Origin: an uncultured Rhodospirillaceae bacterium
GTDB lineage: Bacteria; Pseudomonadota; Alphaproteobacteria; Rhodospirillales; Casp-alpha2
Length of the DNA: 32,000 nt
Reading direction: 5' to 3'
Assembly: GCA_913030825.1 (NCBI GenBank)
Contig: CAJWCU010000029.1
Location: 1 to 32,000, forward strand
Of this stretch, positions 311-13,640 are shown piece after piece; the stretch's first letter is position 1; every line of letters begins with the position of its first letter. The position numbers and the translations under genes were made by a program. The notes under the pieces were generated by a model. That model was not told where the DNA came from. It was given only the letters and a program-made list of their open reading frames with translations, and did no database searches.

Positions 311-690
311 CAGCTACCCTCCGATTTGGGCTTTTCGCGGGCGATATACTGCTCCAACAACGCCTGGTCGGTTTCAGACAAGGCCCCATCCTCCCCGTCG
401 TCCTGGTCAGCCAGGATATGCTGGGCGGCAAGCCTGAGGACCAGATCCATGCCCCTGGGGTCTCCCTTGAGGGCCTTGGCCAGCAGCGCTTTGACCACAC
501 CCTCCAGCTTGCTGATCTTTTTCTGGCGATCGCCCTCCCGGACGACGATGGTCTCCGACAGCTCGGCCTCCAGGATGGTCTTCAGGTTTTTGGCTCCCTT
601 GGGCCGGCCGCAGGGGTTACCGGAGAGACCTTTTTTGAACCGGCTGTGTTTAGGCGGCTTCTTGTAGCCGACCTCGTAATCTTCAGACAT
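310..690 (-). CDS. DUF5681-like small phage protein (putative small terminase / DNA-recognition subunit)
   Basis: Internal ATG at 690-688 gives MSEDYEVGYKKPPKHSRFKKGLSGNPCGRPKGAKN..., the GYxKPPxxxRFxKGxSGNPxGRPKG motif typical of DUF5681. It sits between the methylase and the large terminase. There is an 8-nt overlap (ATGTCTGA) with the methylase stop at 683-685 and an ATGA overlap with the terminase start. The track start at 795 lies inside the upstream gene. Confidence 0.7.
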   Translation of the reverse strand: MSEDYEVGYKKPPKHSRFKKGLSGNPCGRPKGAKNLKTILEAELSETIVVREGDRQKKISKLEGVVKALLAKALKGDPRGMDLVLRLAAQHILADQDDGEDGALSETDQALLEQYIAREKPKSEGS

Positions 691-2086
691 CGCAGCCGCC
701 CTCCCGGACTTGGTCCGGCATGCCTGCATCCTCCCTGTCATGGGATGCCTGCCGCGCGACCGCGGTCTCCTCAAAGGTCCCGCCCGTCGCCTCAAGGACA
801 GCAGACCGGCCCGTCAGGTCTTGCCACCTTCGGACCGACACATCCACGTAGCCTGGGGCCAGCTCCATACAGCGGGCCCGCCGGCCGACCTGTTCGGCCG
901 CCACCAGCGTCGTGCCGCTGCCCGCAAAGGCGTCCAGCACAAGGCCGCCCCGGTGCGAACAGTCGCGCATTGCGTCGGCCACCAGGGCCACCGGCTTCAC
1001 GGTCGGGTGCATGGCAAGCGCCTCAGCCCGGCCATCGTGAAGGCTGCTGACGCCCGGGTAGTCCCAGACGTTCGTCCGGTTGCGGCCATGGCAGCCCAGT
1101 TGGACGTTGTTCACATGCGGGGCCCGTCCCTTTTTGTAGACGAAGACAAGCTCGTGCTTGGAGCGGTAGAGCGAGCCCATGCCGCCGTTGTCCTTGTTCC
1201 AGACACAGAGGTTCTTGAGTTCCTGGTAGGCCTTTCGGCCGGCTGCGCCCAGTTCACCCAGGTGGCGCCAGTCCATGCAGATGAAGTGGATCGACCCGTC
1301 GACCGAGTTGTCCGCCAGGTGCCCGAGGGTCGTTTCCAGGAAAGCCTGGAACTCGCCCTCGGACATTTCCCCGGAGGCCATGGCGAATTCGTCATGGGCA
1401 TGCTTACCAAGCCCCGACACATGGCCATTGATCGGAACATTGTAAGGCGGGTCCGTGAATACCATTTGGGCTCGTTCGCCCTGAAGGAGCTTTTCGTAAG
1501 GCTCGGCTTCCAGAGCGTTACCGCAGATCAGCCGGTGCGGACCTAAGCACCAGACGTCGCCTGGCCGCGTGATGACATCGGTGGCTTTCGGCATCGCCGG
1601 CACGGCGTCCGCCTCGTCTGCGGGGTCTTCGCTGCCCTCAAGCAGAAGGTCGATCTCGGGCATGTCGAAGCCGGTCAACGTCACATCGAAAGCGACCTCT
1701 TCATCCAGCAGGAACTGGAGTTCATTTGCCAGAAGTTCAGGGTCCCAGCCGGCGTTCTCTGCAAGCTTGTTATCGGCGATGATGTAGGTACGGCGCTGTG
1801 CCTCACTCATGTCTTCCAAGCGGATGGTCGGCACCGATGCCAGACCCAGAAGCCGGCCGGCCTCGACGCGGCCGTGGCCGGCAATGATCCGGTCCTCCCC
1901 GTCGATCAGGACCGGGTTGGTGAACCCGAATTCCTCGATGCTGTCGGCGATCTGGCGGAGTTGTTTCTTGCTGTGGGTGCGGGGATTGCGTTCGTAGGGC
2001 TTGAGATCCGTGATGTTGCGGTAACGGACCTCAAGAGGCTCCCCGGAAGTTATCAAATCTTGTTTGGCGGAACGGTCGGCGGTCAT
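683..2086 (-). CDS. ParB-like nuclease domain fused to a beta-class DNA methyltransferase (N6-adenine or N4-cytosine)
   Basis: The N-terminus (YERNPRTHSKKQLRQIADSIEEFGFTNPVLID...IIAGHGRVEA) is a ParB/Srx-type domain. Motif IV FTDPPYN comes before motif I LDAFAGSGTTLVAAE, which is the beta-class order. Preferred start is ATG 2086 (MTADRS), preceded by GAAGGAGAAGG. The track start 2107 is also possible. Confidence 0.85.
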   Translation of the reverse strand: MTADRSAKQDLITSGEPLEVRYRNITDLKPYERNPRTHSKKQLRQIADSIEEFGFTNPVLIDGEDRIIAGHGRVEAGRLLGLASVPTIRLEDMSEAQRRTYIIADNKLAENAGWDPELLANELQFLLDEEVAFDVTLTGFDMPEIDLLLEGSEDPADEADAVPAMPKATDVITRPGDVWCLGPHRLICGNALEAEPYEKLLQGERAQMVFTDPPYNVPINGHVSGLGKHAHDEFAMASGEMSEGEFQAFLETTLGHLADNSVDGSIHFICMDWRHLGELGAAGRKAYQELKNLCVWNKDNGGMGSLYRSKHELVFVYKKGRAPHVNNVQLGCHGRNRTNVWDYPGVSSLHDGRAEALAMHPTVKPVALVADAMRDCSHRGGLVLDAFAGSGTTLVAAEQVGRRARCMELAPGYVDVSVRRWQDLTGRSAVLEATGGTFEETAVARQASHDREDAGMPDQVREGGCDV

Positions 2087-2441
2087 GGCCTTCTCCTTCA
2101 AGTTCAAGGAGAGCCCCGACGATCAATGTAAGTGATAAACGCGCGGGGCTCTGACATCTCTGCCAGCAGCCCCCGGCCGCTGTAGCCTTTGGGCCCCGCC
2201 CGCATTTAAGAAGCTCTCTCGACCGCCCCGCGTAACCAGAGCCCCGCCCTGGTACGAGATCCGCTTCGGCATGGCCCGATCATAGCGCGGGGGTTCAAGA
2301 GCCCAAAATGAAGAGCGCTCATATTTTGCACAATCTATTGTTTTGAATTGGGAATTTAGATTTCACGTCGTCCAAAATCGTGGACTTCGGCACGTGAACC
2401 CGTAACTTGAACGCGTCGAATCGGTAGAGACGGAGGGGCAA

Positions 2442-2843
2442 ATGGCCGACCGCATGACACTCGAGCGAGGCCGCTGGTACGCCTGGCAGATGCTGCCAGG
2501 GTATGTGAATGGCGCTTACTACTCACCGATTAGAGTGAATGAAGTTGAGCCCTTAAAGTCTGGGCAGTCGCGGATGAAACTCGACTATCTAAACGCGGCC
2601 TATGCCCAAGGGGTACAGTCTTTCAAAGATACCTTGCGCGTTCTTCTGCGCGCCGAGGATTACATGATCGTCGTTCGGGAGGAAGGGCAGGAACCCGCGA
2701 AAGTCCGGTCCGCGATCATCACCCCCATTACCTGGGACTGGTTGAGGCTGCATTTTGGTGGGTTTGTTCAAAACAACCGACCAAGACCCGACGAACTGTC
2801 CTCGGAAGGCCTCCGTGAATACCTTCAACGTGTCTTAACGTAG
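2442..2843 (+). CDS. Hypothetical protein (133 aa), no recognisable domain
   Basis: ATG preceded by GACGGAGGGGCAA (Shine-Dalgarno-like). First gene after the compositional drop at about 2300. I recognise no motif. Confidence 0.5.
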   Translation: MADRMTLERGRWYAWQMLPGYVNGAYYSPIRVNEVEPLKSGQSRMKLDYLNAAYAQGVQSFKDTLRVLLRAEDYMIVVREEGQEPAKVRSAIITPITWDWLRLHFGGFVQNNRPRPDELSSEGLREYLQRVLT

Positions 2844-3192
2844 TTTCGGGACCACGGCCGGGGCCAAATTTTTACTCCACATTCCGAAGACGATTTGTGG
2901 CGCGCCTACCGACTTCAATCGATCAGTGTACGGAACCGAACTTCAGAGCGGGGGAATTTCAGGGAGCACGGTCAAATCAAAGGGGCATTACTACACTTGG
3001 AGAGGTCGGGTTATTGGGTCAAAAACAGTATCTGGCGCTTCAGCGGGGACTTTGAATGTTCCAGTTTAGTTACCTCTGATCGCATAATTTGCGATCTGTA
3101 GGAAGAGCTTCAGAGCGCCAGAATAACTAGGCCCTAACAATGGGCCATTACGAAATTGGGGCCGATCATCTCCATTTGGATCAAAGGTGTGA

Positions 3193-4374
3193 TCATTTAA
3201 ATTTTTCAAAGTATCGGTTGATGCCATTCTCGAGAGCATTGACAGCTTTAGAATTACAGGTTTTTTGATCTCTAACGAATGTGTCGATGTCAGCGTCCGC
3301 CATGTTCACGATCTGCCCTATGCCCCCGAGTTTCCCGAACCATCTTCCGACGTCCTGTGATGATTTTGATTTTAACAGGGCGCCCAAGGCGTAGAGGCTA
3401 TATATGCCGTCGAGCGTTTTACGTTTTGCCTGATTGGAAGACGACAAAAATCGCCCGCAAGTTTGTTCAAGTCTCTTTGATGCCTTGATCACGTATATTG
3501 ATGTGAGGCTCTTTTCGGTGTCTTGCTGGTTCAACAGCGCCTTGTAGTTGGAATGATAAAGCCACTCCATGACGTGAGGAGCTTTGAACCTACTCTCAAC
3601 AAAATAAGTTGACTGGGTGTGTCCAGCGATTGGGCCTGACGATGTTTTTAACTGCGTGGTCACAGCGATCGAGAAAAAGACCGAAAACAGGCCCACCGCC
3701 AACCATGCACCGCCTCCGGCCCAATTGCGGCCACCTTTCAATCGCAAATACGTCCGCAATTGTTCGGACGTTTGATTGTGAAGTGCGCGGCCCACGCGCA
3801 GGGTCTTGAAAACAGCACTCCGATAGAAATAGTTGCCGAACAGCCCCATGAGCAAAAATGAAATCGAACCGGATGCCAGAAATCCAAGGATGATCGCGTC
3901 CCCTTTGACAACACCTTGACCCAAAAAGAGGACGGTCAGCAGGAAGTGAACGCTCGAAAAAACCGCAATCAGTGTAAGCGCGTGAATGTGCATTTTCCGA
4001 AAACCAAGCCAGATAGGCCCCAACAGACCCGCGACCCAATTGAAACTGATATTGGATCCCTTGATGGACATTTCCCGCCAGTGAACCCAATACCAGTCAT
4101 GATTTTCGCCGACCAGGTCCGCGGCATGATCTTTGGTCAAGGTCTCACCACGCCATTCGAGGGTGTCCTCAAATTTCGGTGTACCGGATTGCTGGCTTCC
4201 GTCGGACCTTGATGGGGAAGACGCCGACGCTTCATTCGGGTTGATGTTTCGGTTGTCTTCAGTCCGTTCCGAGTCGGCGCTTGGCGATTGGCTAAACACA
4301 AAACCGCAGTATGGACATTCATTCGGCGTACCGTAGGTCCGCTTTGAACATTCTGGGCAATCTATGTGAGACAC
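3193..4374 (-). CDS. Zinc-ribbon / DUF2628-like multi-pass membrane protein with an unknown C-terminal domain
   Basis: GTG start preceded by GGGGGAGG. The N-terminal CPECx(11)CPYC is a zinc ribbon, followed by a low-complexity S/P/E linker. FNWVAGLLGPIWLGFRKMH plus 3-4 hydrophobic helices resemble DUF2628. The roughly 150-aa C-terminal region is unassigned. Confidence 0.65.
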   Translation of the reverse strand: MSHIDCPECSKRTYGTPNECPYCGFVFSQSPSADSERTEDNRNINPNEASASSPSRSDGSQQSGTPKFEDTLEWRGETLTKDHAADLVGENHDWYWVHWREMSIKGSNISFNWVAGLLGPIWLGFRKMHIHALTLIAVFSSVHFLLTVLFLGQGVVKGDAIILGFLASGSISFLLMGLFGNYFYRSAVFKTLRVGRALHNQTSEQLRTYLRLKGGRNWAGGGAWLAVGLFSVFFSIAVTTQLKTSSGPIAGHTQSTYFVESRFKAPHVMEWLYHSNYKALLNQQDTEKSLTSIYVIKASKRLEQTCGRFLSSSNQAKRKTLDGIYSLYALGALLKSKSSQDVGRWFGKLGGIGQIVNMADADIDTFVRDQKTCNSKAVNALENGINRYFEKFK

Positions 4375-4433
4375 GTGCGCCTCCCCCTATATTGTTCAGT
4401 CAAATGTTTGGCTAAGTCGATTGAGCAGCGGGC

Positions 4434-5528
4434 TCACCTCTTTGGCCAAACCTTCTCCATCCCGTAGACAAAGAGGTCAACGTTCTTACCTGCGCCGTAG
4501 GCCTCTATCGCGAACATCCCCCGCGTCCCGGCCCTGCCACTAAATGACATCTGTACATTTGCGCAACGCTCCAGATTTTTTCTCAATAGATCCGAAAAAC
4601 GCTTCTTACGTTTCGATTTCACCCGCCATGAGACCTTCAATACCGTCGCGTTGAAGCGGTCGGAAACCTCATAGATTTTGCATTGGGCGCCTGCGGGGCA
4701 GTAGGTAGACGTCCAGAAAGGCGATGGCCAATACTTTGGCTCGCGCTTTTTCCCGATGAAATCCTTGAACCTGTTTTCGGACCCGGCCAATAGCCTGGCA
4801 GCCATGTCGCAGGTTTTCATGTGTTGAAGTAGTGCATCATCCGAATAGTCTGTTTGCTCGTTTTTCTTCTTTGAAGACTCCTCGGTTTTCGAAGGGGCAC
4901 TGCTCCCGACTTTCTCCAGCGCGAACCAAGGCGTCGTTCGAATGAGGCGAACAAATTCCAGGTCGCCAAACAGGCTCTTGATTTCCGTGGTCGACAGCTT
5001 GCCGGTGAATGAATACGAACGCTCTCCCTTGAACATCAGATTGAGCCCGTGTTTTTTCGCTAGACTGATCGCTCTGTCATTCGCGACACGCTTGCCGTCT
5101 GATTTTGCGTCTCGAATTGCCAGGAACTCGAACGACCATTTCCCCGCCGAACCGTTCGGCGAGATTTTGGCGTAGAGCATTTCGTTGTTCTTGAAGGCTT
5201 TATCTTTTGTGTCGAACAAAAGCAAAAAACCGGGTGTTGCAAGAGGCAGCACATAGAATGGAAAGATTTTCTTCGATTTCGATTTGTCATCCCGAACGCT
5301 TAGTGTGTAGGCGCCATTCCCGCCTTGGATCAAGACGACTTCACCGGACGGTTTGCCGACTTCATCAAATGATTTGTACTTCCCCGGCAGGCCCCGGATC
5401 GTTGCGAGATCCGATTTCACGATCGTCGGCCGCGGACTTCCGATGCAGCCGTAAAGGAGCATGCCCGCAAGAATGAGTGCCAGGACGGCAAGGCTTCGTT
5501 GCACAAGGAAATTGGCGGTTCGGATCAT
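4434..5528 (-). CDS. Putative lipoprotein (364 aa), function unknown
   Basis: ATG preceded by GGGAAAGAGAG. Signal peptide with a lipobox-like LLYGC (MIRTANFLVQRSLAVLALILAGMLLYGCIGS). It lies 59 nt upstream of, and is co-oriented with, the zinc-ribbon membrane gene, and is divergent from the TIR gene. Confidence 0.6.
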   Translation of the reverse strand: MIRTANFLVQRSLAVLALILAGMLLYGCIGSPRPTIVKSDLATIRGLPGKYKSFDEVGKPSGEVVLIQGGNGAYTLSVRDDKSKSKKIFPFYVLPLATPGFLLLFDTKDKAFKNNEMLYAKISPNGSAGKWSFEFLAIRDAKSDGKRVANDRAISLAKKHGLNLMFKGERSYSFTGKLSTTEIKSLFGDLEFVRLIRTTPWFALEKVGSSAPSKTEESSKKKNEQTDYSDDALLQHMKTCDMAARLLAGSENRFKDFIGKKREPKYWPSPFWTSTYCPAGAQCKIYEVSDRFNATVLKVSWRVKSKRKKRFSDLLRKNLERCANVQMSFSGRAGTRGMFAIEAYGAGKNVDLFVYGMEKVWPKR

Positions 5529-5743
5529 AGTCTCTCTTTCCCTGGTCGATGCTAGTTATACTAATGCGGCGACGTAAGCGCCAAGCGTTTATGCTCACTA
5601 AGAATAGATACGCAAGGATTTAAAGCAAAATTTACAAGTAAAGAATGTGCAGAATAACCTGCTTCCTTTACGAGCTTATGGATCCTGACTATCATTTTTT
5701 TGTGAAGAGCCTGCTCCGCATTTAGGCTGATCCTGGAGATAGA

Positions 5744-8677
5744 ATGAGCACCCCAGAGGCGACCAAAAGAAAGGTTCACCGGTACAAGGCGTTTATCAGT
5801 TATCGCCATGTGGACAGAGACCGCCGTTGGGCCAAGTGGTTGATTGACGGTCTTGAGACCTACCGCGTTCCCAAGGAACTGGTGGCCTCCGGCTATCCCA
5901 CCCGAATTGGTACCCTGTTTCGCGATGACGAGGAAATTCCCGCATCGCCGGATCTTTCCAATCAAATTGAAGACGCCCTGGATGACAGCGAATTCCTGAT
6001 CGTTATCTGCTCGCCCGATACGCCCGCGTCACAGTGGGTCCGGCGGGAGATAACCTATTTTCAGGAGCAGGGACGGGGTGACCATATATTGCCGCTCCTG
6101 GTCGAAGGCGAGCCGTCCGACTCCTTCCCGCCCGAGTTGCGATTTGCAGAGCGTGAAGTGACGGACGCCGACGGAAATGCCTCCAAGGTCCGCGAAGAGA
6201 TTGAACCGCTGGCGGCTGACGTGCGCGCCCGGACGGACGAGCCGAAAAAAGCGACGGAGCACCGCGCCCTGATCCGGATTGCCGCGGGGCTCCTTCGCTG
6301 CCGGTTCGATGACCTTGCCCAAAGAGATGCACAACGCGAAGCAAAACGCAGACGGATGGTTATTTCAGCTGCGGCCACATGCCTTGTCGCCGCCATCTCC
6401 AGCGGACTCTATTGGTGGGATCAAACCCGCATAAAGACGAGTTATTACGCCAACTTCGGAACGAAATGGGGCGTGCCGTTTGGCGTTGGGAGACTGGATA
6501 AAGAGACTCAGAAGCAGAGGCACTCCAGCTTCGCCATAGACACCCGAGGGGGACGCATCGTTGAAATGCGGCATGTCAATGGCCTGGGGTTTCCGCGCAA
6601 ACTTTCTCCACAATCAGCGCACTCAATTTCCCACCCGTGGCTTAATGGAGGTGAAAGGTGGCTATTTGAATTCGCTGACGATGGGCGTCTACGGAAGGTG
6701 AGCCAAATCAACTCGAAAGACCCCCGTAGACAACTCGCCTCGGGCGCCCAGAATTTTCTCGTGTTCAGGTTTGAATACCTCGCCGACAAAAACGCGGTTG
6801 TTTCGTTCAGAACTGAAGGAAGAACCAAAACGCTGGCAGCGGGAGCGTTCACGATAAGTCGTGAAAACAACCGCAACTCCAGCTCGTCTATAACGAGCCA
6901 CACAAACATTGCACAACACAGATTGGCGTTCGACAACTCGGGCTTCATTGTCTCTCGTCAGTTTGAAACCGAGACTGGGCAGCCCACCAGTGAGTTGTCG
7001 GGAAGCTACGGGAGAAAGTATTTCTACGATGAAAGGGGCCTTGTTTCCGCATTTGGGAACTTGAACCGGTCAGGAAGGCTGATGGCTGAACACGGCGGGG
7101 TGATGACGGTTCAATTTCAATACGATACCCAAGGCGACCTCATAAAAACTATCTATCTCGACAAAAAGGGAAGACCGCTGAGAAACCAAAAGTGGCTCCC
7201 GAAAATTGAGTTTAAAAGATCGCCAGTGGGGAATGTGTTGGAAGCATCCTATTTTTCCATTGATGGACGGCTCGGAACCAATGGAGAAGGGTACTCACGT
7301 GAGGTAAAAACTTATGACAGGCACGGCAACATGACCCGCCGCCGTCTTTTCCATGCGGACGGGAATCCCGCGGTGCACGATAAATATGGGTACTCGATGC
7401 AGACGTGGGAGCACAATTTTAGAGGGCAAGTCGTCCGAACCTCTTTTTACGACGACGAGTTGCAGCCTATCGTTCTGCCGAGCCTTGGATTCGCGCAATC
7501 AAAGAAAACATACGATGAGCGCGGAAACACAATAGAAGAATCATATCTAGATACCGGAGGGATGCTGCTCCGTCAAAAATGGGGATATGCGAAAGTCAAA
7601 TTTTCATACGACGCATTGGACCGGATAACTGAAATTATTTATTTCGATGTCGATAACGCGCCAACACAAGAAAGTCGCGGGTTTGCCAGCCTGAAGTGGA
7701 AATATGATGCCCAAGGAAATCGTATTCGTGAGAGTTACTATGACGCGGAAGGAAATTTGACCGAAAACGCTCGTGGAGTGGCGTCGCAGAGCTGGGCCTA
7801 TACGCCCAGAGGGAGCGTAAAAGAGACCAGTTTTTTCAACCAAGCAAACGAATTGGTCACCCCCGGCAAGCCCAATTGGGCGCGGAAGGTTTGGCGATAT
7901 GACCATCGAGGAAACGCAAAGGAAGTCTCATTTTATGGACCAGCTGGACAGCCAGTGCTCTCGAAAAATGGTTGCGCCAAATACGAAAGAGATTTTAACG
8001 ACGCCGGAAAAGTAACGAGAAAAATTTGCGTTGGAACGGATGGGCAACCAAAGCTCGGTACAAACAAGGCTGCTTATACGGAAATCGACTTTGACCAAAA
8101 AGGAAATAAAATCCAAGTTACCTACAAAGACACCCGGGAGCAACTCACACTGTCAGTGTTTGGTTATGCCCGGGTAGTTCAGAAATATGATGAGCTGAGT
8201 CGGTTGACCGAAAGGTCATATTTTGACGTAAATGGGAATTATATTGAACATAAGAAGCAGGGATTCGCGCGCCTGATCAAAAAGTATGACACCTTTGGAA
8301 ATTTGGTCGAAGAAGCATTTATAGGTAAAAATGGTAAATTGATTCAACCGTCAGGCAAAAATTACGCGCGGTTTATTGAAAAATACAATGATCAAAATCA
8401 AACAATCGAAGAAGCCTATTATTCGGCTGATGGTAAACTCGCGATAAATACCGAGTGGGAGTTTGCCCGCAAGCTGACGATCTATGACGATCAGAACAGG
8501 GTCATACGCGAATCTTTTTTCGGCGATGGCGGAGAGCCGATCCTCTACGAAGGCGTCTTCCACCATTTAGAAAGGCAATACAACCAAGATGGAAAATTGG
8601 TTGCGTTGAGGTCGCTGAATAAATTTGGAAAGGTTGTATTTGTAAATCGAGATGAGTCGTTTCTATCGCAATGGTAA
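5744..8677 (+). CDS. Membrane-anchored TIR-domain protein: N-terminal TIR, single TM helix, C-terminal YD-like repeat ectodomain (977 aa)
   Basis: ATG preceded by GGAG. TIR signature YKAFISYRHVDRD...LFRDDEEI...SEFLIVICSPDTPASQWVRREI. A PLAADVR juxtamembrane helix and KRRR precede the hydrophobic MVISAAATCLVAAISSGLYWW. About 750 aa follow, with a regular YDxxGN...Y.D..G...G.A repeat. Confidence 0.85.
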   Translation: MSTPEATKRKVHRYKAFISYRHVDRDRRWAKWLIDGLETYRVPKELVASGYPTRIGTLFRDDEEIPASPDLSNQIEDALDDSEFLIVICSPDTPASQWVRREITYFQEQGRGDHILPLLVEGEPSDSFPPELRFAEREVTDADGNASKVREEIEPLAADVRARTDEPKKATEHRALIRIAAGLLRCRFDDLAQRDAQREAKRRRMVISAAATCLVAAISSGLYWWDQTRIKTSYYANFGTKWGVPFGVGRLDKETQKQRHSSFAIDTRGGRIVEMRHVNGLGFPRKLSPQSAHSISHPWLNGGERWLFEFADDGRLRKVSQINSKDPRRQLASGAQNFLVFRFEYLADKNAVVSFRTEGRTKTLAAGAFTISRENNRNSSSSITSHTNIAQHRLAFDNSGFIVSRQFETETGQPTSELSGSYGRKYFYDERGLVSAFGNLNRSGRLMAEHGGVMTVQFQYDTQGDLIKTIYLDKKGRPLRNQKWLPKIEFKRSPVGNVLEASYFSIDGRLGTNGEGYSREVKTYDRHGNMTRRRLFHADGNPAVHDKYGYSMQTWEHNFRGQVVRTSFYDDELQPIVLPSLGFAQSKKTYDERGNTIEESYLDTGGMLLRQKWGYAKVKFSYDALDRITEIIYFDVDNAPTQESRGFASLKWKYDAQGNRIRESYYDAEGNLTENARGVASQSWAYTPRGSVKETSFFNQANELVTPGKPNWARKVWRYDHRGNAKEVSFYGPAGQPVLSKNGCAKYERDFNDAGKVTRKICVGTDGQPKLGTNKAAYTEIDFDQKGNKIQVTYKDTREQLTLSVFGYARVVQKYDELSRLTERSYFDVNGNYIEHKKQGFARLIKKYDTFGNLVEEAFIGKNGKLIQPSGKNYARFIEKYNDQNQTIEEAYYSADGKLAINTEWEFARKLTIYDDQNRVIRESFFGDGGEPILYEGVFHHLERQYNQDGKLVALRSLNKFGKVVFVNRDESFLSQW
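5783..6118 (+). other. TIR domain (residues ~14-125), candidate catalytic Glu102 at 6047-6049
   Basis: FISY start motif, DDEEI loop and the SQWVRRE motif. In characterised bacterial TIR NADases, the Glu after the conserved Trp is the catalytic position. Assignment is by motif only. Confidence 0.75.
6356..6418 (+). other. Predicted transmembrane helix of the TIR protein (residues ~205-225)
   Basis: A 21-residue hydrophobic stretch preceded by REAKRRR. The positive-inside rule places the TIR domain in the cytoplasm and the repeats outside. Confidence 0.65.
6929..8674 (+). repeat. About 18 tandem protein-level repeats of 32-33 aa (96-99 nt), YD/RHS-like beta-hairpin type
   Basis: (Y/F)(D/N)xxG anchors at residues 396, 428, 460, 492, 524, 557, 590, 622, 654, 686, 719, 751, 783, 815, 848, 881, 914 and 946. 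The spacing is always 32 or 33. The copies are diverged at the DNA level. Confidence 0.8.
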
Positions 8678-8814
8678 TTGGGTCATTTTTCGCGATGTCG
8701 CGTCGCGGTGTTAGACGACTTTGATGAAATTCGATGATCGACCTGGTTCGCGGGCGACCCTAAACTGAAAAATTGATTGTCTGACTGTTAAATCGTATCT
8801 GCGGTAGCAATTCG

Positions 8815-11295
8815 ATGTTGAACCGAAAATTGGATGTAATCGTCTGGGCGATCCTGGGCGGTTTGGCGATTGCCAGTATCGGCCTCAGTTTCTGGGGTTG
8901 GTTTCAGTTCGAGACCGGCCGCCAGACCGAAATGACGGCCGGCGTCTGGTTGGATATCGCGGCGAGGACGATCTCTTTCTTTTTTGCCGAGCGGCCGGAC
9001 GTGGACATCCCGGGCACCGGCGTCGCCGTGCCGCCCGGATATATCTCGCTCAACATTGCTCGCGTACTGGCGCCGACGGCGACCATGGGCGCGATCCTGC
9101 GCGTGGCGATTGAGTTCTTTTTCGGCCAGATCAGGGCCTCCCGCGTTCGGAACATGAAAGGCCATACGGTCGTCAGCGGCCTGTCGGATAACGGTTTGGC
9201 CTTCGCCAGGTCGGAAGCGGCGATGGGGCGTAAGGTCGTCATCGTTGGTCCGGAAGAGAACAGCTCCGCGGCATTTCTCGGCAGCCTTCATGGTTTTGAA
9301 TTCGTGTTGGGCGATCCCAGGGAGATTGAAGTTTTGCGCGCCGCGGGCGTTGGCGAAGCAAGGAATCTTGTGAGTGTTTTGCCGGATGACGGCGACAATC
9401 TCGAGGTCGCCATGCTCGCACGGAAAATCGTCGAGAAAGACCGAAAGGCAGCCGAACCTCTGCTGGTCAACGTCGCGATCGCAAATCGCCGGCTCTGGCG
9501 CCAGATCGTCCGCTCAGACGCGATCGAGCGAAGCCATGGCAAGTTCGAGATGCTGCCGTTCAATTTGGCCATCTGGGCGGCCCGACAGTTCACCTGGCGG
9601 GAGCCGCTTTGGGGGTATGCCGCATTGCGGGGTCAAAAAAAAATTCATGCCGTGTTCATTGGCTTTGACGAATATGCGGAGGCAATGATCGGGCAGATCC
9701 CGCCCGCCTGTGTGGCCGGCGACCTGGAGCGTCCGGCGTTTTCGATTTTGACCGGCCAGGAAAAATTCGCTCGGGGGAGTCTCGCCCAATCCTACGATCA
9801 GTTGGCCGAGGTTTGCGACATTACCTACCATCATTTCGAGCCGCGCATGTTTTCACTGACCGAAACCTTGATGGAAACCGTATCCGAGGTTGGCGAGGTG
9901 ACAGCCGTCTTCGTCTGCCTCGATGATGAAGAAGAATCCCTTGGCGCCGCCATTCATGTTCAAGACGTCATGCACCGCACGGGGCAATGGGGCGCTCCGG
10001 TTTATCTGAGATTGGCTAAGTGCGAGGGCGTTGGCGATCTTCTGGTTGATTCCGCGCGCGCCCGTAGGTTCTCGGAAGTGATACAGCCCTTTGGTGTTGA
10101 AGATGAACTCTGCAGCCTGGATGCTGTCGAAGGCAGGCTCGAAAAATTGGCGAGAGCGATCCATGTCGCTTACGAGGCATCCCGCGATGCCAGTGTGTTT
10201 ATCGATGATCCCGAACGCAGCTCCGCGACCCTTTCCGATTGGCGCAGCCTTCCGGAAACGTTTCGGGTGTCCAACCGGCGGGCAGCCGACAATATTCAAG
10301 CCAAATTGTGGAGTTGCGGCAGCTATGTCCCCGTGGGGACAAAATTGGATGCGTGCAAAGGCTTTCAAATGGCGTCGTCACCGGCAGTGCTGGAAGAACT
10401 GGCAGAACTTGAACACCGGTCGTGGGTCGCCGGGCGCTACGTTGACGGCTGGCAGTATGGCGATCACCGGGATGACCGCCGGAAAAGGCATCCGAACATG
10501 GTTGCCTATTCGGAATTGGATGAACCGACCAAGGAATTCGACAGGGACCAAATTCACTTGATCGACAAAACGCTGATCAACCGGCCGGACAATGCGCCTT
10601 CGAACGAGTTGATCCGAGTGGACCATTGGATCGGCCTCATCGGCAAGAACCTTGTACACGCAGAAGAAGTCCCGTGGATAAAGGAACAATGTACCGCGTT
10701 CCTGTCGACGTTCGTGGAGAAGCGACCCGATTGCCACGTTACTTTGGTCACTCCACTTGCGCCGGGGTCCGACTTTATTCTCGCTTCCGGGGCGCTTGCA
10801 TACCTGAAAGAAAAGGGTGTCCCGCATCGGCTTTTGGTTGTCGCGGCCGTGCCTTCGGAGCACATGATCGAAGACTACCGGGAGAATTTTGAGAACGGCG
10901 GAGTCTGGGATGGGGAGGATTCTGTCCGAAGTGACAAGTCATGGACCGGGGGCGATGGAGATGGTCAGCGCGACTTAATTAGGAAGCACCGGGATAAGAT
11001 CATTGCCTCTGAAGCGACCGAATGGGTTATCGACTTGACGGACGCAGAGGCTGACTACAGAGAGCAGACGAGCCGCCAAGCAGGGTATCGAACGGCAGCA
11101 GACTATATCGCCACCCGGGCGCACACTCTTATTGCCGTGCACCGTCCGGAACCTGGCGACAGGGGGGCAAAAATGGGCGGGACGGAAGACACATTGCGTC
11201 GGCGCCCGGACTTGTTGGTCCGTCGTCCCGATACAATATATCGAAACGTGGTTTTTGATTTGCAGGCGTGTGGAGTGAGCGAAGACGATTTGTAG
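8815..11295 (+). CDS. Membrane protein: 2-TM pore-like module + RCK/TrkA-N-like domains + RyR domain + C-terminal SLOG/LOG-like domain (826 aa)
   Basis: N-terminal hydrophobic helices VIVWAILGGLAIASIGLSFWGWF and ISLNIARVLAPTATMGAILRVAIEFFF flank WLDIAARTISFFF. Rossmann-like GHTVVSGLSDNGLAF...KVVIVGPE...NLVSVLPDDGDNLEVAMLARKI. RyR motif LAELEHRSWVAGRYVDGWQYGDHRDDRRKRHPNMVAYSELDEPTKEFDRDQ. The C-terminal strands HWIGLIG, VTLVTPLAPGSDFILASGAL, LLVVAAVP and TLIAVH...MGGTEDT resemble LOG/SLOG (PGGxGTxxE-like). There is no clear SD, so the start is uncertain. Confidence 0.8.
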   Translation: MLNRKLDVIVWAILGGLAIASIGLSFWGWFQFETGRQTEMTAGVWLDIAARTISFFFAERPDVDIPGTGVAVPPGYISLNIARVLAPTATMGAILRVAIEFFFGQIRASRVRNMKGHTVVSGLSDNGLAFARSEAAMGRKVVIVGPEENSSAAFLGSLHGFEFVLGDPREIEVLRAAGVGEARNLVSVLPDDGDNLEVAMLARKIVEKDRKAAEPLLVNVAIANRRLWRQIVRSDAIERSHGKFEMLPFNLAIWAARQFTWREPLWGYAALRGQKKIHAVFIGFDEYAEAMIGQIPPACVAGDLERPAFSILTGQEKFARGSLAQSYDQLAEVCDITYHHFEPRMFSLTETLMETVSEVGEVTAVFVCLDDEEESLGAAIHVQDVMHRTGQWGAPVYLRLAKCEGVGDLLVDSARARRFSEVIQPFGVEDELCSLDAVEGRLEKLARAIHVAYEASRDASVFIDDPERSSATLSDWRSLPETFRVSNRRAADNIQAKLWSCGSYVPVGTKLDACKGFQMASSPAVLEELAELEHRSWVAGRYVDGWQYGDHRDDRRKRHPNMVAYSELDEPTKEFDRDQIHLIDKTLINRPDNAPSNELIRVDHWIGLIGKNLVHAEEVPWIKEQCTAFLSTFVEKRPDCHVTLVTPLAPGSDFILASGALAYLKEKGVPHRLLVVAAVPSEHMIEDYRENFENGGVWDGEDSVRSDKSWTGGDGDGQRDLIRKHRDKIIASEATEWVIDLTDAEADYREQTSRQAGYRTAADYIATRAHTLIAVHRPEPGDRGAKMGGTEDTLRRRPDLLVRRPDTIYRNVVFDLQACGVSEDDL
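8836..9123 (+). other. Putative degenerate 2-TM ion-channel pore module (residues ~8-103)
   Basis: The order TM1 / short helix WLDIAARTISFFF / loop AERPDVDIPGTG / TM2 mirrors K-channel M1 / pore helix / filter / M2 placed ahead of an RCK domain. No TVGYG filter is present. Confidence 0.4.
10387..10569 (+). other. RyR (ryanodine-receptor type) domain, residues ~525-585
   Basis: Matches the RyR consensus as I remember it: LAExxHxxW...GWxYGxxxDxxxKxHPxxVxYxELxExxKExDR. An upstream half-repeat (LARAIHVAYE...WRSLPETFRVSNRRAADNIQAKL) precedes it. Confidence 0.8.
10621..11214 (+). other. SLOG/LOG-like Rossmannoid domain (putative nucleotide-ligand sensor), residues ~603-800
   Basis: A beta-alpha pattern with a glycine-rich loop after strand 2 (PLAPGSD) and a C-terminal GGTEDT motif, as in LOG/DprA/YpsA/ThsA-SLOG folds. 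Motif-level call only. Confidence 0.5.
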
Positions 11296-11322: not shown

Positions 11323-12363
11323 TCAGAACAAATTGGCATGCACCTGTTGTCTCGCGGCCTGCCTCGCAAGGCCCAGAAGGCGGTCAACCATTTCCGGTCG
11401 ATCAAGTTGCGCGAGAACTTCCAACTCCTTTTGCGTGACGTCGGCGCCAATATTGGAACGCAGCCATTCCCGATCCAGTTTAATGTCAAATCGCTCGTAC
11501 TTGAATAGCGGCGGCGCGGCCGGCAGTTCGTTCGCCAATGTTCCAGCCTCACTGTCGATCTCCCAGGGGTTCTGACTGGTTCCCAACCACTGGAGGATCG
11601 CCTGCGCCTGCCACATGGTGTCGGTGATCATGGATTCCAGCGCGTGGATCGCTTGAAGGCTGCTCGGCAAGCGTAAGAATGACGTGACTGTATGCTGCGG
11701 CGTGTAGATCCCCGTACCCACGGAAAATATCGACAGGTTTTCAGGGCCTGATGGCCAGCCGTACCCGTAGGCTTTTGACGTAGCCATCGTCGCCAGCAAC
11801 AGGGCTGGGTTGTTGTATGGGCTGACCCCACCGTCAACGAAGAGTCCGCGAAATTCCTCGGTAACCTGGATTTCTTCTGGTTCAAAGTAGGTCGGCGCCG
11901 CCGTGCTTGCTCGGAGAATCTGGGCAATCTCGTAGTCGCGGTTTGCGAAGGCACCTGGATCATCTTCAGGCGGGTCGAAATATTTTGACCGCGGGTTGTT
12001 GTGAAAGACCCAGGGGCTCCCCGTGTCGATCCGCTTTGCCGCGATAGCCAGTCCTGTTCGCACCTCGTCGGACCCCAGCCTGCGGTGTCCGATCATTTTC
12101 CGGATGATGCGATCTACATTCTCGCCTTTGAACTTCGGAGAGAGGATGCCCCCGTGCCACCGAGAACCCTCAAACGCATCTTTTGCCAGTATGCGATACG
12201 TTTCAAGCAGGTCCGCAACAGAAAACCCGAGTGCAAGACCCGCCGCGATTGTCGCGCCCGCGGATGTTCCGCCGATCAAATCGAAATAATCACACAGCCG
12301 GAAATCCGGGCCACCGCCTTCTTGATTGCGTAGTACGTTTTCGACCTCTTCTAGAAACCCCAA
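11323..12363 (-). CDS. Patatin-like phospholipase (CapV-like size); the true N-terminus lies upstream of the track start
   Basis: GTSAG (GxSxG) at 12256-12270 and FVDGGVSPYNNP (the catalytic Asp of the DGG motif). The track start is a TTG at 12363. The same frame stays open upstream to 12486 and encodes KRVLSIDGGGVRG (12373-12393), the patatin oxyanion-hole motif. No ATG, GTG or TTG precedes that motif in frame. Convergent with the 826-aa gene, with a 27-nt gap. Confidence 0.85.
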   Translation of the reverse strand: MGFLEEVENVLRNQEGGGPDFRLCDYFDLIGGTSAGATIAAGLALGFSVADLLETYRILAKDAFEGSRWHGGILSPKFKGENVDRIIRKMIGHRRLGSDEVRTGLAIAAKRIDTGSPWVFHNNPRSKYFDPPEDDPGAFANRDYEIAQILRASTAAPTYFEPEEIQVTEEFRGLFVDGGVSPYNNPALLLATMATSKAYGYGWPSGPENLSIFSVGTGIYTPQHTVTSFLRLPSSLQAIHALESMITDTMWQAQAILQWLGTSQNPWEIDSEAGTLANELPAAPPLFKYERFDIKLDREWLRSNIGADVTQKELEVLAQLDRPEMVDRLLGLARQAARQQVHANLF

Positions 12364-12486
12364 CGCGACGATTCCTCGGACGCCGCCGCCGTCGATCGAA
12401 AGGACGCGTTTAGGTCCCGGGCCGAATAAGTGATCTTCAAGATTTGGAATGATATGTCCCCCACACGCGCGCCATTTTACGAGCGC

Positions 12487-12926: not shown

Positions 12927-13013
12927 TGACCCGCCCCTCACTGACTGGTCCAGTTAGAATGTTAGTGCATTGACCTGCCCCCACTGACTGGTCCGGTTTG
13001 AATGTTAGTGCAT
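12927..13013. repeat. Tandem duplication (44 + 43 bp, ~90% identical) of an IS terminal repeat
   Basis: Copy A (12927-12970): TGACCCGCCCCTCACTGACTGGTCCAGTTAGAATGTTAGTGCAT. Copy B (12971-13013): TGACCTGCCCCCACTGACTGGTCCGGTTTGAATGTTAGTGCAT. Copy B overlaps the last codons of the transposase fragment. Confidence 0.8.
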
Positions 13014-13640
13014 CATCCGTTTTTCCTCCATGGGGATGGTGCTTTCCGGTGCCGGCGGCCTGTATCCGAGAGCTGAGTGCGGTCGCTTCGTGTTGTAATG
13101 CTGTCGCCACTGTTCGATGACGATCTGGGCTTCTTTTAGGCTGTAGAAGATTTCGCCATTCAGTAGCTCGTCGCGGAACCTGGCGTTGAAGCTCTCGCAG
13201 TAACCATTCTCCCTGGGTGAACCCAGTTCGATATAGGCAACCTTCGAACCGACGGCGTTGATCCACTGTCTGACGGCTTCCGCGATGAACTCCGGGCCAT
13301 TGTCAGAGCGAATATAAGCCGGAACGCCTCGGATGATGAACAAGTCAGTCAGGGCATCGATTACATCTGCCGAGTTCAGCTTGCGCTTTACCCTGATCGC
13401 GAAGCACTCCCGACTGAACTCATCAATGATGTTGAGCGTTCTACAGGCAAGGCCATCTTCCGTTCAGTGGTGAACGAAGTTGTACGACCAGATGTGGTCA
13501 ACGTGCTGTGGCCTAAGGCGAATACACGATCCGTCAATCAGCCACAGCCGACCGCGCTTCGGCTGCTTTATGGGAACCTTCAGCCCCTCACGGCGCCACA
13601 GGCGTTCGCCCCGCTTGTCGTTCAGCTGCCGCCCGGCTCA
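12971..13640 (-). mobile_element. Truncated insertion-sequence remnant (rve/DDE transposase type, IS3-like end starting TGACCTGCCCCC)
   Basis: Only the 3' two-thirds of the transposase ORF and one terminal repeat are present. The 5' part (OrfA and the opposite end) is absent, and similarity is lost beyond about 13640. Confidence 0.7.
13005..13637 (-). pseudogene. Integrase-core (rve) transposase fragment with an in-frame TGA
   Basis: The frame reads AGRQLNDKRGERLWRREGLKVPIKQPKRGRLWLIDGSCIRLRPQHVDHIWSYNFVHH*TEDGLACRTLNIIDEFSRECFAIRVKRKLNSADVIDALTDLFIIRGVPAYIRSDNGPEF...YNTKRPHSALGYRPPAPE. The TGA is at 13464-13466 and tandem TGA TGA at 13638-13643. Where related transposases carry a conserved WSYDF (as I recall it), this copy reads WSYNF. 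Confidence 0.75.

Follow-up and report, generated by a model that had tools for sequence, protein, structure and literature searches.

What does a RyR domain do in a bacterial membrane protein that is encoded beside a TIR gene? The question is raised by a stretch of 32,000 nucleotides (nt), here called the window, from an uncultured Rhodospirillaceae bacterium (contig CAJWCU010000029.1, positions 1 to 32,000 of the forward strand; assembly GCA_913030825.1). One of its genes encodes a multidomain protein, the RyR-SLOG protein, which an earlier interpretation of the bare DNA (the sequence-only reading) had taken for a nucleotide-gated, non-selective pore acting as a suicide effector. Our conclusion is that it probably serves an undescribed TIR-based defence system as its signal-gated membrane effector, and parallels in bacteria the calcium channels of animals that respond to cADPR and ADPR. 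The chassis of the protein and its coupling to TIR genes make a nucleotide-responsive membrane effector the best reading; homology to known pores, on the other hand, was not detected. The gene is as follows.

8815..11295, plus strand: the RyR-SLOG protein, 826 amino acids, in the order 2-TM module (two transmembrane, TM, helices), RCK1, RCK2, RyR-A, RyR-B, SLOG.

The gene and its family

Is this a real gene? The open reading frame (ORF) at 8815-11295 is single and unbroken, homologues align with its product from end to end at 39-52% identity, and in an exhaustive search by profile 16,806 of 1.84 billion cluster representatives proved to be relatives at E<=1e-3, of which 2,727 reached E<=1e-30. 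We therefore take the gene to be real and widespread. The family size is a lower bound, at least 2,727 clusters at 50% identity. ORFs that overlap 8815-11295 in other frames are short and unsupported.

The full TM-RCK-RCK-RyR-RyR-SLOG architecture is present in 101 of the 163 best representatives; another 42 stop after the RyR module, at about 580-600 residues, and constitute a short form that lacks SLOG. Hosts are found among Gamma- and Alphaproteobacteria, Acidobacteriota, Myxococcota, Actinomycetota, Bacteroidota and Bacillota, with environmental metagenome-assembled genomes (MAGs) predominating. A search of viral contigs (IMG/VR), confined to exact peptide patterns, gave no relatives, and on that evidence a phage origin, or a role as anti-defence sponge, was rejected. 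Pfam holds no model for the two terminal modules (2-TM and SLOG-fold). We found no published description of this fusion in literature on RyR together with TrkA, RCK, SLOG, TIR or Thoeris, in a search whose coverage excluded most subscription journals.

A chassis with two RCK domains

The middle of the protein is built on two Rossmann-type domains.

9163..9444, plus strand: RCK1 (TrkA_N), residues 117-210; Pfam TrkA_N, E 5.9e-10; hhalign against the MthK RCK domain, 97%.
9460..10110, plus strand: RCK2-like Rossmann domain, residues 216-432; hhalign against RCK1, 97%; Foldseek matches to GsuK, TrkA and Slo1.

The TrkA_N match spans residues 119-209 and exceeds the gathering cut-off of the model. 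When RCK1 is aligned with the RCK domain of MthK by hhalign, residue 115 of the query pairs with residue 115 of MthK, the start of the RCK domain in both; phmmer pairs residues 89-214 with MthK 85-210. The alignment of RCK2 to RCK1 covers its core, residues 278-386. The sequence-only reading had recognized one TrkA-N/RCK-like domain; an RCK domain is indeed present, but there are two. Compared with the Protein Data Bank (PDB) by Foldseek, the full model fits GsuK best (E 1.1e-9; 547 aligned columns, 548-residue chain), and the matches that follow are TrkA, MthK and human Slo1. The Pfam Slo-like_RCK model matches seven of 51 family members. These domain matches bear out the earlier picture of an MthK-like, RCK-gated 2-TM chassis to which nucleotide-sensor domains have been added.

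The glycine motif of RCK1 (9178-9195, residues 122-127) departs from the GLG..G of the family: the window protein and its closest relatives have the degenerate forms GLSDNG and GITRNA. Nucleotide binding by RCK1 may have been lost in this subfamily.

A predicted ligand pocket in the RyR module

If the chassis is that of a ligand-gated protein, which part receives the ligand? Two repeats follow the RCK pair.

10132..10329, plus strand: RyR repeat A, degenerate, residues 440-505; hhalign against repeat B, 95%, E 3e-8.
10372..10584, plus strand: RyR repeat B, residues 520-590; Pfam RyR; pocket H534, W537, R552, H559, D576.

The RyR domain named by the sequence-only reading is confirmed by Pfam at residues 524-588 (E 3.6e-14; 53.2 bits against a cut-off of 27.4), and PF02026 matches 50 of the 51 family members; we now refine it to a tandem pair. 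Repeat A retains H450 and Y453, has S470 and N487 where the pocket His and Asp would be, and contains a strongly conserved 'ANRRAADH'. Repeat B matches the R12 (Repeat12) domains of RyR1-3 with phmmer E-values down to 7e-25. It is one query region that matches both target repeats in that PDB search, so we rejected the reading of these stretches as two query repeats; repeat A is shown separately by hhalign. Judged from these alignments, the protein carries a predicted intramolecular two-fold R12-like domain.

The spacing of H534, W537, H559 and D576 (3/22/17) is identical to that of H75/W78/H100/D117 in RyDEP and of H129/W132/H154/D171 in RyR Tad, and R552 occupies the position of K147 in RyR Tad. 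Among some 160 representatives H534 is conserved in 154 of 160, W537 in 159 of 160, R552 (as R or K) in 150 of 158, H559 in 123 of 160 (77%) and D576 in 150 of 159. The RyR repeats are the most conserved part of the protein (1.83 and 1.93 bits).

What does such a pocket bind? The function of bacterial RyR domains was called unknown as late as 2020 (PMC7399828), and the sequence-only reading had repeated this; two preprints of 2026 now supply part of the answer (PMC13232231; 10.64898/2026.06.04.730250). According to these, RyR/R12 domains bind 2′ cyclic ADP-ribose (2'cADPR), 3'cADPR and cADPR, and phage RyR domains bind or cleave TIR-made 2'/3'cADPR via the four residues. RyR Tad binds 3'cADPR with a dissociation constant of 43 nM, and 2'cADPR and cADPR also; its ligand contacts are H129/W132, K147/H154 and K170/D171 (10.64898/2026.06.04.730250).

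The sequence-only reading had assigned sensing to the SLOG domain. The RyR module is at least as likely a sensor, because RyR/R12 domains bind cADPR isomers and because relatives that lack SLOG keep the association with TIR genes; in this protein we regard it as the likelier one.

Two further RyR genes were encountered. Directly downstream of a short-form TM-RCK-RyR gene, and near a DUF4062 gene, lies a stand-alone RyR gene for 109 amino acids (L008:5523-5852, minus strand); by analogy with phage RyR sponges its product could be a host-encoded signal buffer or quencher. At locus L032, in the MAG of a Methanoregulaceae archaeon, a 150-residue RyR ORF (4409-4861) stands beside DUF4062 and TIR-like genes. 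The linkage of RyR to TIR may thus reach archaea and proteins without the TM-RCK chassis.

The C-terminal domain

The last 225 residues were described by the sequence-only reading as LOG/SLOG-like, a description that holds for the fold (YpsA and DprA, by Foldseek) and fails in the sequence.

10618..11292, plus strand: SLOG-fold domain, residues 602-826; AlphaFold2 (AF2) and Foldseek; motifs IGLxG, TLxTPLAPGxD, HRLLV, GGT.

Modelled alone, the domain is an alpha/beta sandwich (pLDDT 88, pTM 0.87). YpsA (2nx2; E 3.6e-5, TMt 0.61) and DprA take ranks 1-4 of the Foldseek matches in the PDB, and the MoCo carrier protein takes rank 10. YpsA, DprA and the MoCo carrier protein are members of the SLOG superfamily. 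The motifs IGLxG (607-610), PLAPGxD (647-653) and GGT (788-790) are conserved and, judged by eye, may resemble the glycine-rich motifs of LOG and DprA. An assignment at the level of sequence was rejected: Pfam at E<=10 gave no match for the domain, and no SLOG match in any of the 51 members; two hidden Markov model (HMM) profiles of the domain found no match among PDB sequences; and a profile search of a 5.8-billion-protein set returned a single family fragment, owing to its word index.

TIR genes as partners

Which gene could supply the signal? The neighbour upstream of the RyR-SLOG gene is a candidate.

5744..8677, plus strand: TIR-TM-YD/RHS protein, 977 amino acids; Pfam TIR_2, E 9e-15, ThsB_TIR, 1.4e-8, and RHS_repeat; NCBIfam YD_repeat.

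Its TIR domain (residues ~10-154, nt 5771-6205) is followed by a TM helix (residues 205-225, nt 6356-6418) and by C-terminal YD/RHS repeats. The gene ends 138 nt before the RyR-SLOG gene on the same strand, and no terminator-like site was found in the gap. E102 ('WVRREI'), which we take by homology to be the putative catalytic Glu, is invariant in all six aligned partner TIRs, and all six have a TM helix after the TIR domain. The TIR-YD protein of the window and the neighbour at L004 are orthologs over their full length (40% identity over ~990 residues). Beyond the TIR domain the partners are diverse, with YD repeats, a peptidoglycan-binding domain, nSTAND1-TPR or TPR.

Is the arrangement peculiar to the window? 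At ten of 17 distinct SLOG-form loci a bona fide TIR gene stands no more than 10 kilobases away, and an eleventh has a DUF4062-nSTAND1-TPR gene in the equivalent upstream position; TIR or TIR-like genes thus accompany 11 of the 17, and in seven the gene is immediately adjacent. DUF4062 loci were counted apart from TIR, small-profile hhalign of DUF4062 against TIR giving only 33%; hits of an in-house TIR HMM in L030 and L042 were excluded as drift onto the target's own Rossmann domain. About 13 of 29 short-form loci are also positive, their neighbours being TIR-CHAT-STAND, DUF4062-NACHT-WD40/TPR and TIR genes. Since relatives without SLOG also flank TIR genes, the link belongs to the TM-RCK-RyR core and not to SLOG. 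The TIR-system context proposed by the sequence-only reading is borne out by this survey.

Several partners are receptor-like: those at 5744-8677 (plus strand) of the window, L002:8932-9804, L004:1441-5136, L013:9448-11403 and L015:12612-13793. Their topology comprises a cytoplasmic N-terminal TIR, one TM helix and a variable extracytoplasmic part (YD/RHS, PG_binding_1 or a region of no known type). This is the layout of a Toll-like receptor with the termini reversed, and it suggests TIR signalling that is triggered at the envelope.

At one locus (L003:1-9946) a dense conflict island lies upstream of the family member. It contains a TIR-nSTAND1-FGE-sulfatase gene, a fusion of TIR_2 with RVT_1 (reverse transcriptase), an nSTAND1-TPR gene, a 638-residue protein that DUF4231 matches weakly (E 8e-4) and, last, a patatin.

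The membrane module

How is the protein placed in the membrane? The order given by the sequence-only reading, TM1, short helix, loop, TM2 and RCK-like domain, agrees with the helices of the AF2 model and with the Pfam TrkA_N match.

8836..8904, plus strand: TM1, residues 8-30; AF2 helix 2-35; mean hydropathy +1.56; conserved 'LG..G'.
8938..8985, plus strand: short hydrophobic helix, residues 42-57; AF2 helix 42-54; family motif LD..Y..L.LF.
8986..9042, plus strand: variable Pro/Gly-rich loop, residues 58-76; 0.54 bits; AF2 pLDDT below 50 at residues 59-69.
9043..9126, plus strand: TM2, residues 77-104; AF2 helix 77-112; continues straight into RCK1.

The AF2 helix 42-54 corresponds to WLDIAARTISFFF, which had been noted earlier as the short helix, and the model has a low-confidence loop at 55-76. 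TM2 begins with a conserved 'L..AR.LAP' and has R83, R96 and E100 inside it. Basic residues before TM1 and after TM2, the hydropathy and the predicted helices lead to a predicted 2-TM topology with both termini inside. Between TM1 and TM2 the hydrophobic helix of 13-15 residues is too short to cross the membrane, and is a candidate re-entrant 'pore helix'; as modelled, the 2-TM module has the topology of a P-loop pore. Conservation of the short helix (1.51 bits) and of TM2 (1.55 bits) reaches the level of the RCK domains.

A patatin neighbour

On the other side of the RyR-SLOG gene, convergent with it and 28 nt downstream, lies a gene that the sequence-only reading had not considered as a co-effector.

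11323..12450, minus strand: patatin-like phospholipase, probably ~375 amino acids; Pfam Patatin, E 1.2e-22; PADLOC phospholipase effector, 1e-32.

Patatin genes occur in six of the 17 SLOG-form loci: the window, four others whose products are 53-65% identical, and a fifth at 35%. At the P0006 locus a GDSL lipase replaces the patatin. This conserved partner may be a co-effector.

The window patatin has an unusual start. Its frame is open through 'SIDGGGVRG' (the GGGxRG oxyanion motif), with no ATG, GTG or TTG preceding; downstream of a Shine-Dalgarno-like GGGGGA run there is an in-frame ATT (12450) or ATC (12453), and the listed ORF (11323-12363, 346 amino acids) is shorter. The gene probably starts at the non-canonical ATT or ATC; an alternative explanation of the missing ATG, GTG or TTG is that the start codon was lost. 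A truncated pseudogene was considered and rejected in favour of the open frame with a non-canonical start. Elsewhere the patatin is split into two overlapping ORFs (L001:12483-13680 and L018:8513-9915, both minus strand), which could reflect frameshift decay or an assembly error.

A proposed mechanism

How might these parts work together? We propose that, in a TIR-based conflict system of Thoeris-like design, the RyR-SLOG protein would serve at the membrane as both receptor and effector. An envelope trigger acting on the extracytoplasmic YD-repeat sensor would cause the neighbouring membrane TIR to turn NAD+ into a signal derived from ADP-ribose (ADPR). The tandem RyR module, with its complete pocket (H534, W537, R552, H559, D576), would bind the signal, and the YpsA-like SLOG domain might bind it too. 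The resulting conformational change would be relayed through a ring of tandem RCK domains in the presumed oligomer, as in GsuK, MthK and BK, and would open a poorly selective 2-TM pore; depolarization would be followed by growth arrest or death, the expected defence phenotype. The co-inherited patatin phospholipase would act as a second membrane-directed effector. Of this scheme, the sequences themselves show the domain order with its RCK pair and SLOG fold, the conserved pocket, and the association with TIR and patatin genes; the nature of the ligand, the choice of sensing domain, oligomerization, a pore and a defence phenotype are inferred.

To this whole chain, from TIR signal through RyR/SLOG and RCK to the pore, with the patatin added, we give an even chance. 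The narrower statement, that within a conflict system the protein receives a ligand which is TIR-derived or an adenine nucleotide, we consider likely. The interpretation is sharper than before because the RyR domain has a known ligand class, and weaker because pore homology is lacking and the association with TIR is not universal.

Evidence against the mechanism, and other explanations

Not all of the observations are favourable, and those set out below weigh against the mechanism just proposed. Does the 2-TM module form a pore? The loop between the short helix and TM2, where a selectivity filter would lie, is the least conserved segment of the family (0.54 bits). Its length varies from 8 to 48 residues (median 14), and at 21 residues the window copy carries an insertion of ~6-7 residues that is missing in its five closest homologues. 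The sequence-only reading had taken 'AERPDVDIPGTG' in this loop for a substituted TVGYG filter. T[VI]G[YF]G stands at the filter position in none of 163 family sequences; since the family has no conserved filter, 'filter replaced' is the wrong description.

Nor did profile comparisons reveal the homology to K-channel pores and Ion_trans_2 that had been expected of the N-terminal helices. Pfam Ion_trans_2 matched none of 14 N-terminal segments and none of 51 diverse full-length members, and an HMM search of the TM module against PDB sequences gave no match. The hhalign comparison with the MthK/KcsA/NaK pores reached 0.4% with a 14-sequence profile and 3.4% with a 144-sequence profile, against a template alignment of three sequences, which limits the power of the test. 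We rejected sequence homology of the module to K-channel pores on these uniformly negative results, subject to the limited power of the templates. The AF2 model of the full monomer is itself of moderate confidence (pLDDT 71), and its RyR region is poor (pLDDT 30-45).

A pore is still plausible, because an inner-helix-like TM2 joined to tandem RCK domains is a gating arrangement elsewhere, and because the conserved elements would face the conduit. We place the formation of a pore by the 2-TM module slightly below even odds.

If there is no pore, what would the membrane module do? The protein could be a membrane-anchored receptor or scaffold, its two TM helices a tether, which when bound to ligand recruits or activates a lethal patatin (once, the GDSL lipase). 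This would accord with a TM module that has neither detectable pore homology nor a conserved filter loop, with the co-inheritance of patatin in six SLOG-form loci, several of them with the gene immediately adjacent, and the GDSL lipase at P0006, and with partner TIRs that are membrane-anchored themselves. Yet patatin is missing from 11 of the 17 SLOG-form loci and from almost every short-form locus; tandem RCK fused to an inner-helix-like TM2 is otherwise known only as a gating device of channels and transporters; and a passive anchor would seldom show what is seen in the short helix and where TM2 begins, conservation on a par with catalytic-type domains. We think this explanation unlikely.

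What of the ligand? Animal R12 domains are reported to bind ATP and ADP too (PMC12627627), so that something other than a cADPR isomer may be the ligand. The assignment of the C-terminal domain to SLOG is supported only at the level of the modelled fold. As to the pocket, its residues, as read from the alignment, would be the same in a protein that senses the signal and in one that degrades or sponges it.

This last point admits a different role, that of a signal quencher. Its RyR domain, like RyDEP, would be a glycosidase, hydrolysing at the membrane the cADPR isomers that TIR makes, and another gene, for example the patatin, would encode the effector. Such an enzyme would set the activation threshold or shut the system off, by analogy with the ring nucleases of type III CRISPR. 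The catalytic dyad of RyDEP is conserved (H75 corresponds to H534 and D117 to D576), and the additional 109-residue RyR gene in the L008 neighbourhood fits the idea. Against this, other RyDEP homologues that were tested did not degrade signals despite high conservation, and six of eight formed stable complexes (PMC13232231); conservation of the dyad is therefore no predictor of catalysis. A quencher would also leave the 2-TM module, the two RCK domains and SLOG unexplained in an architecture that resembles an output device. The quencher role strikes us as quite improbable.

How firm is the link to TIR? Six of the 17 SLOG-form loci have no TIR gene nearby; of these, four lie amid housekeeping or metabolic genes and one at a contig end. 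PADLOC identified no known system at the window locus, and none of its models matched the RyR-SLOG protein. The partner TIRs are not ThsB-type: the window TIR matches the PADLOC ThsB model at E 0.024 only, and its NCBIfam ThcB4 match is sub-threshold.

Could the protein then be a nucleotide-gated housekeeping channel for ions, or a regulator of transport? It would sense the status of adenine nucleotides or NAD(H) through RCK, RyR and SLOG, and its linkage to TIR would be mere co-location in islands; in a weaker version it would sense the depletion of NAD+ by a TIR NADase and not a specific signal. The TIR-less loci just described, four of them orphans among metabolic genes, would suit this role, as would the roughly half of the short-form loci that have neither TIR nor DUF4062. 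The RCK of GsuK binds NAD+ and ADP, according to PDB titles, and the binding of ATP and ADP by animal R12, reported in PMC12627627, points the same way. On the other hand, TIR or TIR-like genes are found at about half of some 45 distinct loci, mostly adjacent and co-oriented, in unrelated phyla and with varied TIR fusions. TIR genes are rare in bacterial genomes. The window copy, moreover, lies in a low-GC island with an insertion sequence (IS) fragment and a ParB-methylase gene. We consider a housekeeping role very unlikely, and return to the TIR-coupled membrane effector as the reading to be preferred.

The island

The GC content is 46-57% at about 2000-9000 of the window and ~64% in its right-hand two-thirds. 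Apart from the genes already described, the island and its flanks contain the following.

683-2107, minus strand: ParB_N-DNA-methylase gene, at one flank of the low-GC stretch.
3193-4374, minus strand: protein with a zinc ribbon and a multi-TM DUF2628 domain, 393 amino acids, an island gene divergent from the TIR gene.
4434-5528, minus strand: protein of 364 amino acids that Pfam does not match, with a signal sequence of lipoprotein type ('LLYGC'); likewise divergent from the TIR gene.
13005-13343, minus strand: rve_3 integrase-core (IS) fragment, 112 amino acids, beyond the patatin gene; an isochorismatase gene follows.

Rfam and tRNA scans of the island were both empty, and a megablast comparison with plasmids gave nothing beyond short matches to ABC transporters. 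The locus looks like a horizontally acquired island.

Significance

What would follow from these conclusions? The locus would be a case of TIR signalling through a membrane effector, and the family to which that effector belongs is undescribed. More specific, and in our estimate doubtful, is the proposal of a prokaryotic channel whose gating responds to cADPR or its isomers. Its sensor would be of the R12 type, a TRPM-like SLOG would supply a second site, and it would be driven by transmembrane TIRs in the style of Toll-like receptors, which sense what happens outside the cytoplasm. If that were true, the protein would correspond in bacteria to the animal cADPR-RyR and ADPR-TRPM2 axes, would possibly be the source from which these evolved, and would define a further Thoeris-like type of defence, its members numbering thousands. 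The protein unites in one molecule homologues of the sensor modules of both animal Ca2+ channels linked to NAD metabolites (R12 of RyR and SLOG of TRPM).

The function of bacterial RyR domains had been defined, in 2026, only for phage anti-defence proteins. The RyR-SLOG protein gives them a testable role on the side of the host, with a ligand pocket in a host membrane protein beside the class of enzyme that makes the ligand. A direct action of cADPR on ryanodine receptors has long been disputed; a small bacterial R12-like domain on a channel-like chassis could reveal how ligands of the ADPR type are transduced into gating. A large family outside current models of defence systems widens the diversity of TIR immunity, and the receptor-like partners, with an extracytoplasmic YD-repeat or peptidoglycan-binding domain, hint at TIR signalling set off at the envelope.

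Comparison with known systems

How does the RyR-SLOG protein compare with what has been described? It shares with GsuK and MthK an outer TM helix, a short helix, a loop and an inner TM helix fused directly to RCK, and with GsuK and BK/Slo1 the two RCK domains per chain, GsuK being the best fold match. It differs from GsuK and MthK in lacking Ion_trans_2 homology and a TVGYG-type filter, in whose place it has the variable loop; in the ~390 residues of RyR and SLOG that come after the RCK pair; and in a genomic link to TIR instead of ion homeostasis.

With RyDEP and RyR Tad it has PF02026 and the four equally spaced ligand residues in common, and also a two-fold arrangement, which is a homodimer in the phage proteins and the tandem of repeats A and B here. 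The searched text of the RyDEP preprint (PMC13232231) makes no mention of transmembrane or fused RyR-domain proteins. RyDEP and RyR Tad are small soluble proteins encoded by viruses, and they break down the signal of the host or sequester it, whereas the window protein is host-encoded, predicted to be embedded in the membrane, built of output-type fusions and located beside the generator of a TIR signal.

The fold of the C-terminal domain is that of the SLOG superfamily, as in ThsA, YpsA and TRPM2, although neither ThsA nor TRPM2 appears among the top 50 Foldseek matches of the domain. SLOG domains bind 3'cADPR or ADPR in ThsA and TRPM2 and thereby control an effector or a channel. In ThsA the effector part is SIR2; here it is TM-RCK.

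The Thoeris expansion of December 2025 comprises types V-XI and further candidates, among them 'ion channel' (type X), 'SLOG and 4TM' and 'SLOG patatin' (10.64898/2025.12.03.692087). Effectors that are channel-like or sit in the membrane belong to types V, VI, VII and X, and no signal has yet been assigned to type X. RyR and TrkA are absent from the text and the text-format supplements of that work. Like type X (ThsB with ThsK), the window system pairs a TIR gene with a channel-like or membrane effector. At the type X locus of Vibrio sp. JCM 19052, traced through its published TIR sequence, a gene for 208 amino acids (L011:3369-3995, plus strand) lies between two ThsB-type TIR genes; its product has a sub-threshold Ion_trans_2 match (E 0.001) and a filter-like 'TLTYGG' motif, and has no RCK, RyR or SLOG. 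We presume from its position and this weak match that it is the type X effector. BLASTP of this protein against the window protein gave chance-level matches only (E >3), so we rejected the identity of the two; they are analogues, not homologues. Moreover, the TIRs of type X are small and ThsB-type, whereas those of the window family are large, and membrane-anchored or fused to STAND NTPases.

The patatin neighbour resembles the CapV-type patatins of CBASS in matching PADLOC phospholipase effector models (E 1e-32) and NCBIfam CBASS_lipase. Its score for the latter, however, is 83.7 against a cut-off of 200 bits; no CD-NTase gene was identified at the window locus, and the patatin is paired instead with a TIR gene and the RyR-SLOG protein.

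Finally, animal RyR and the oomycete PKD-RR proteins (PMC7399828) likewise join a RyR domain to a protein of the cation-channel type. In those, the chassis is six-TM, of the RyR/ITPR and PKD/TRP kinds; in the RyR-SLOG protein it is 2-TM/RCK, and a candidate for the enzyme that makes the ligand is encoded next door.

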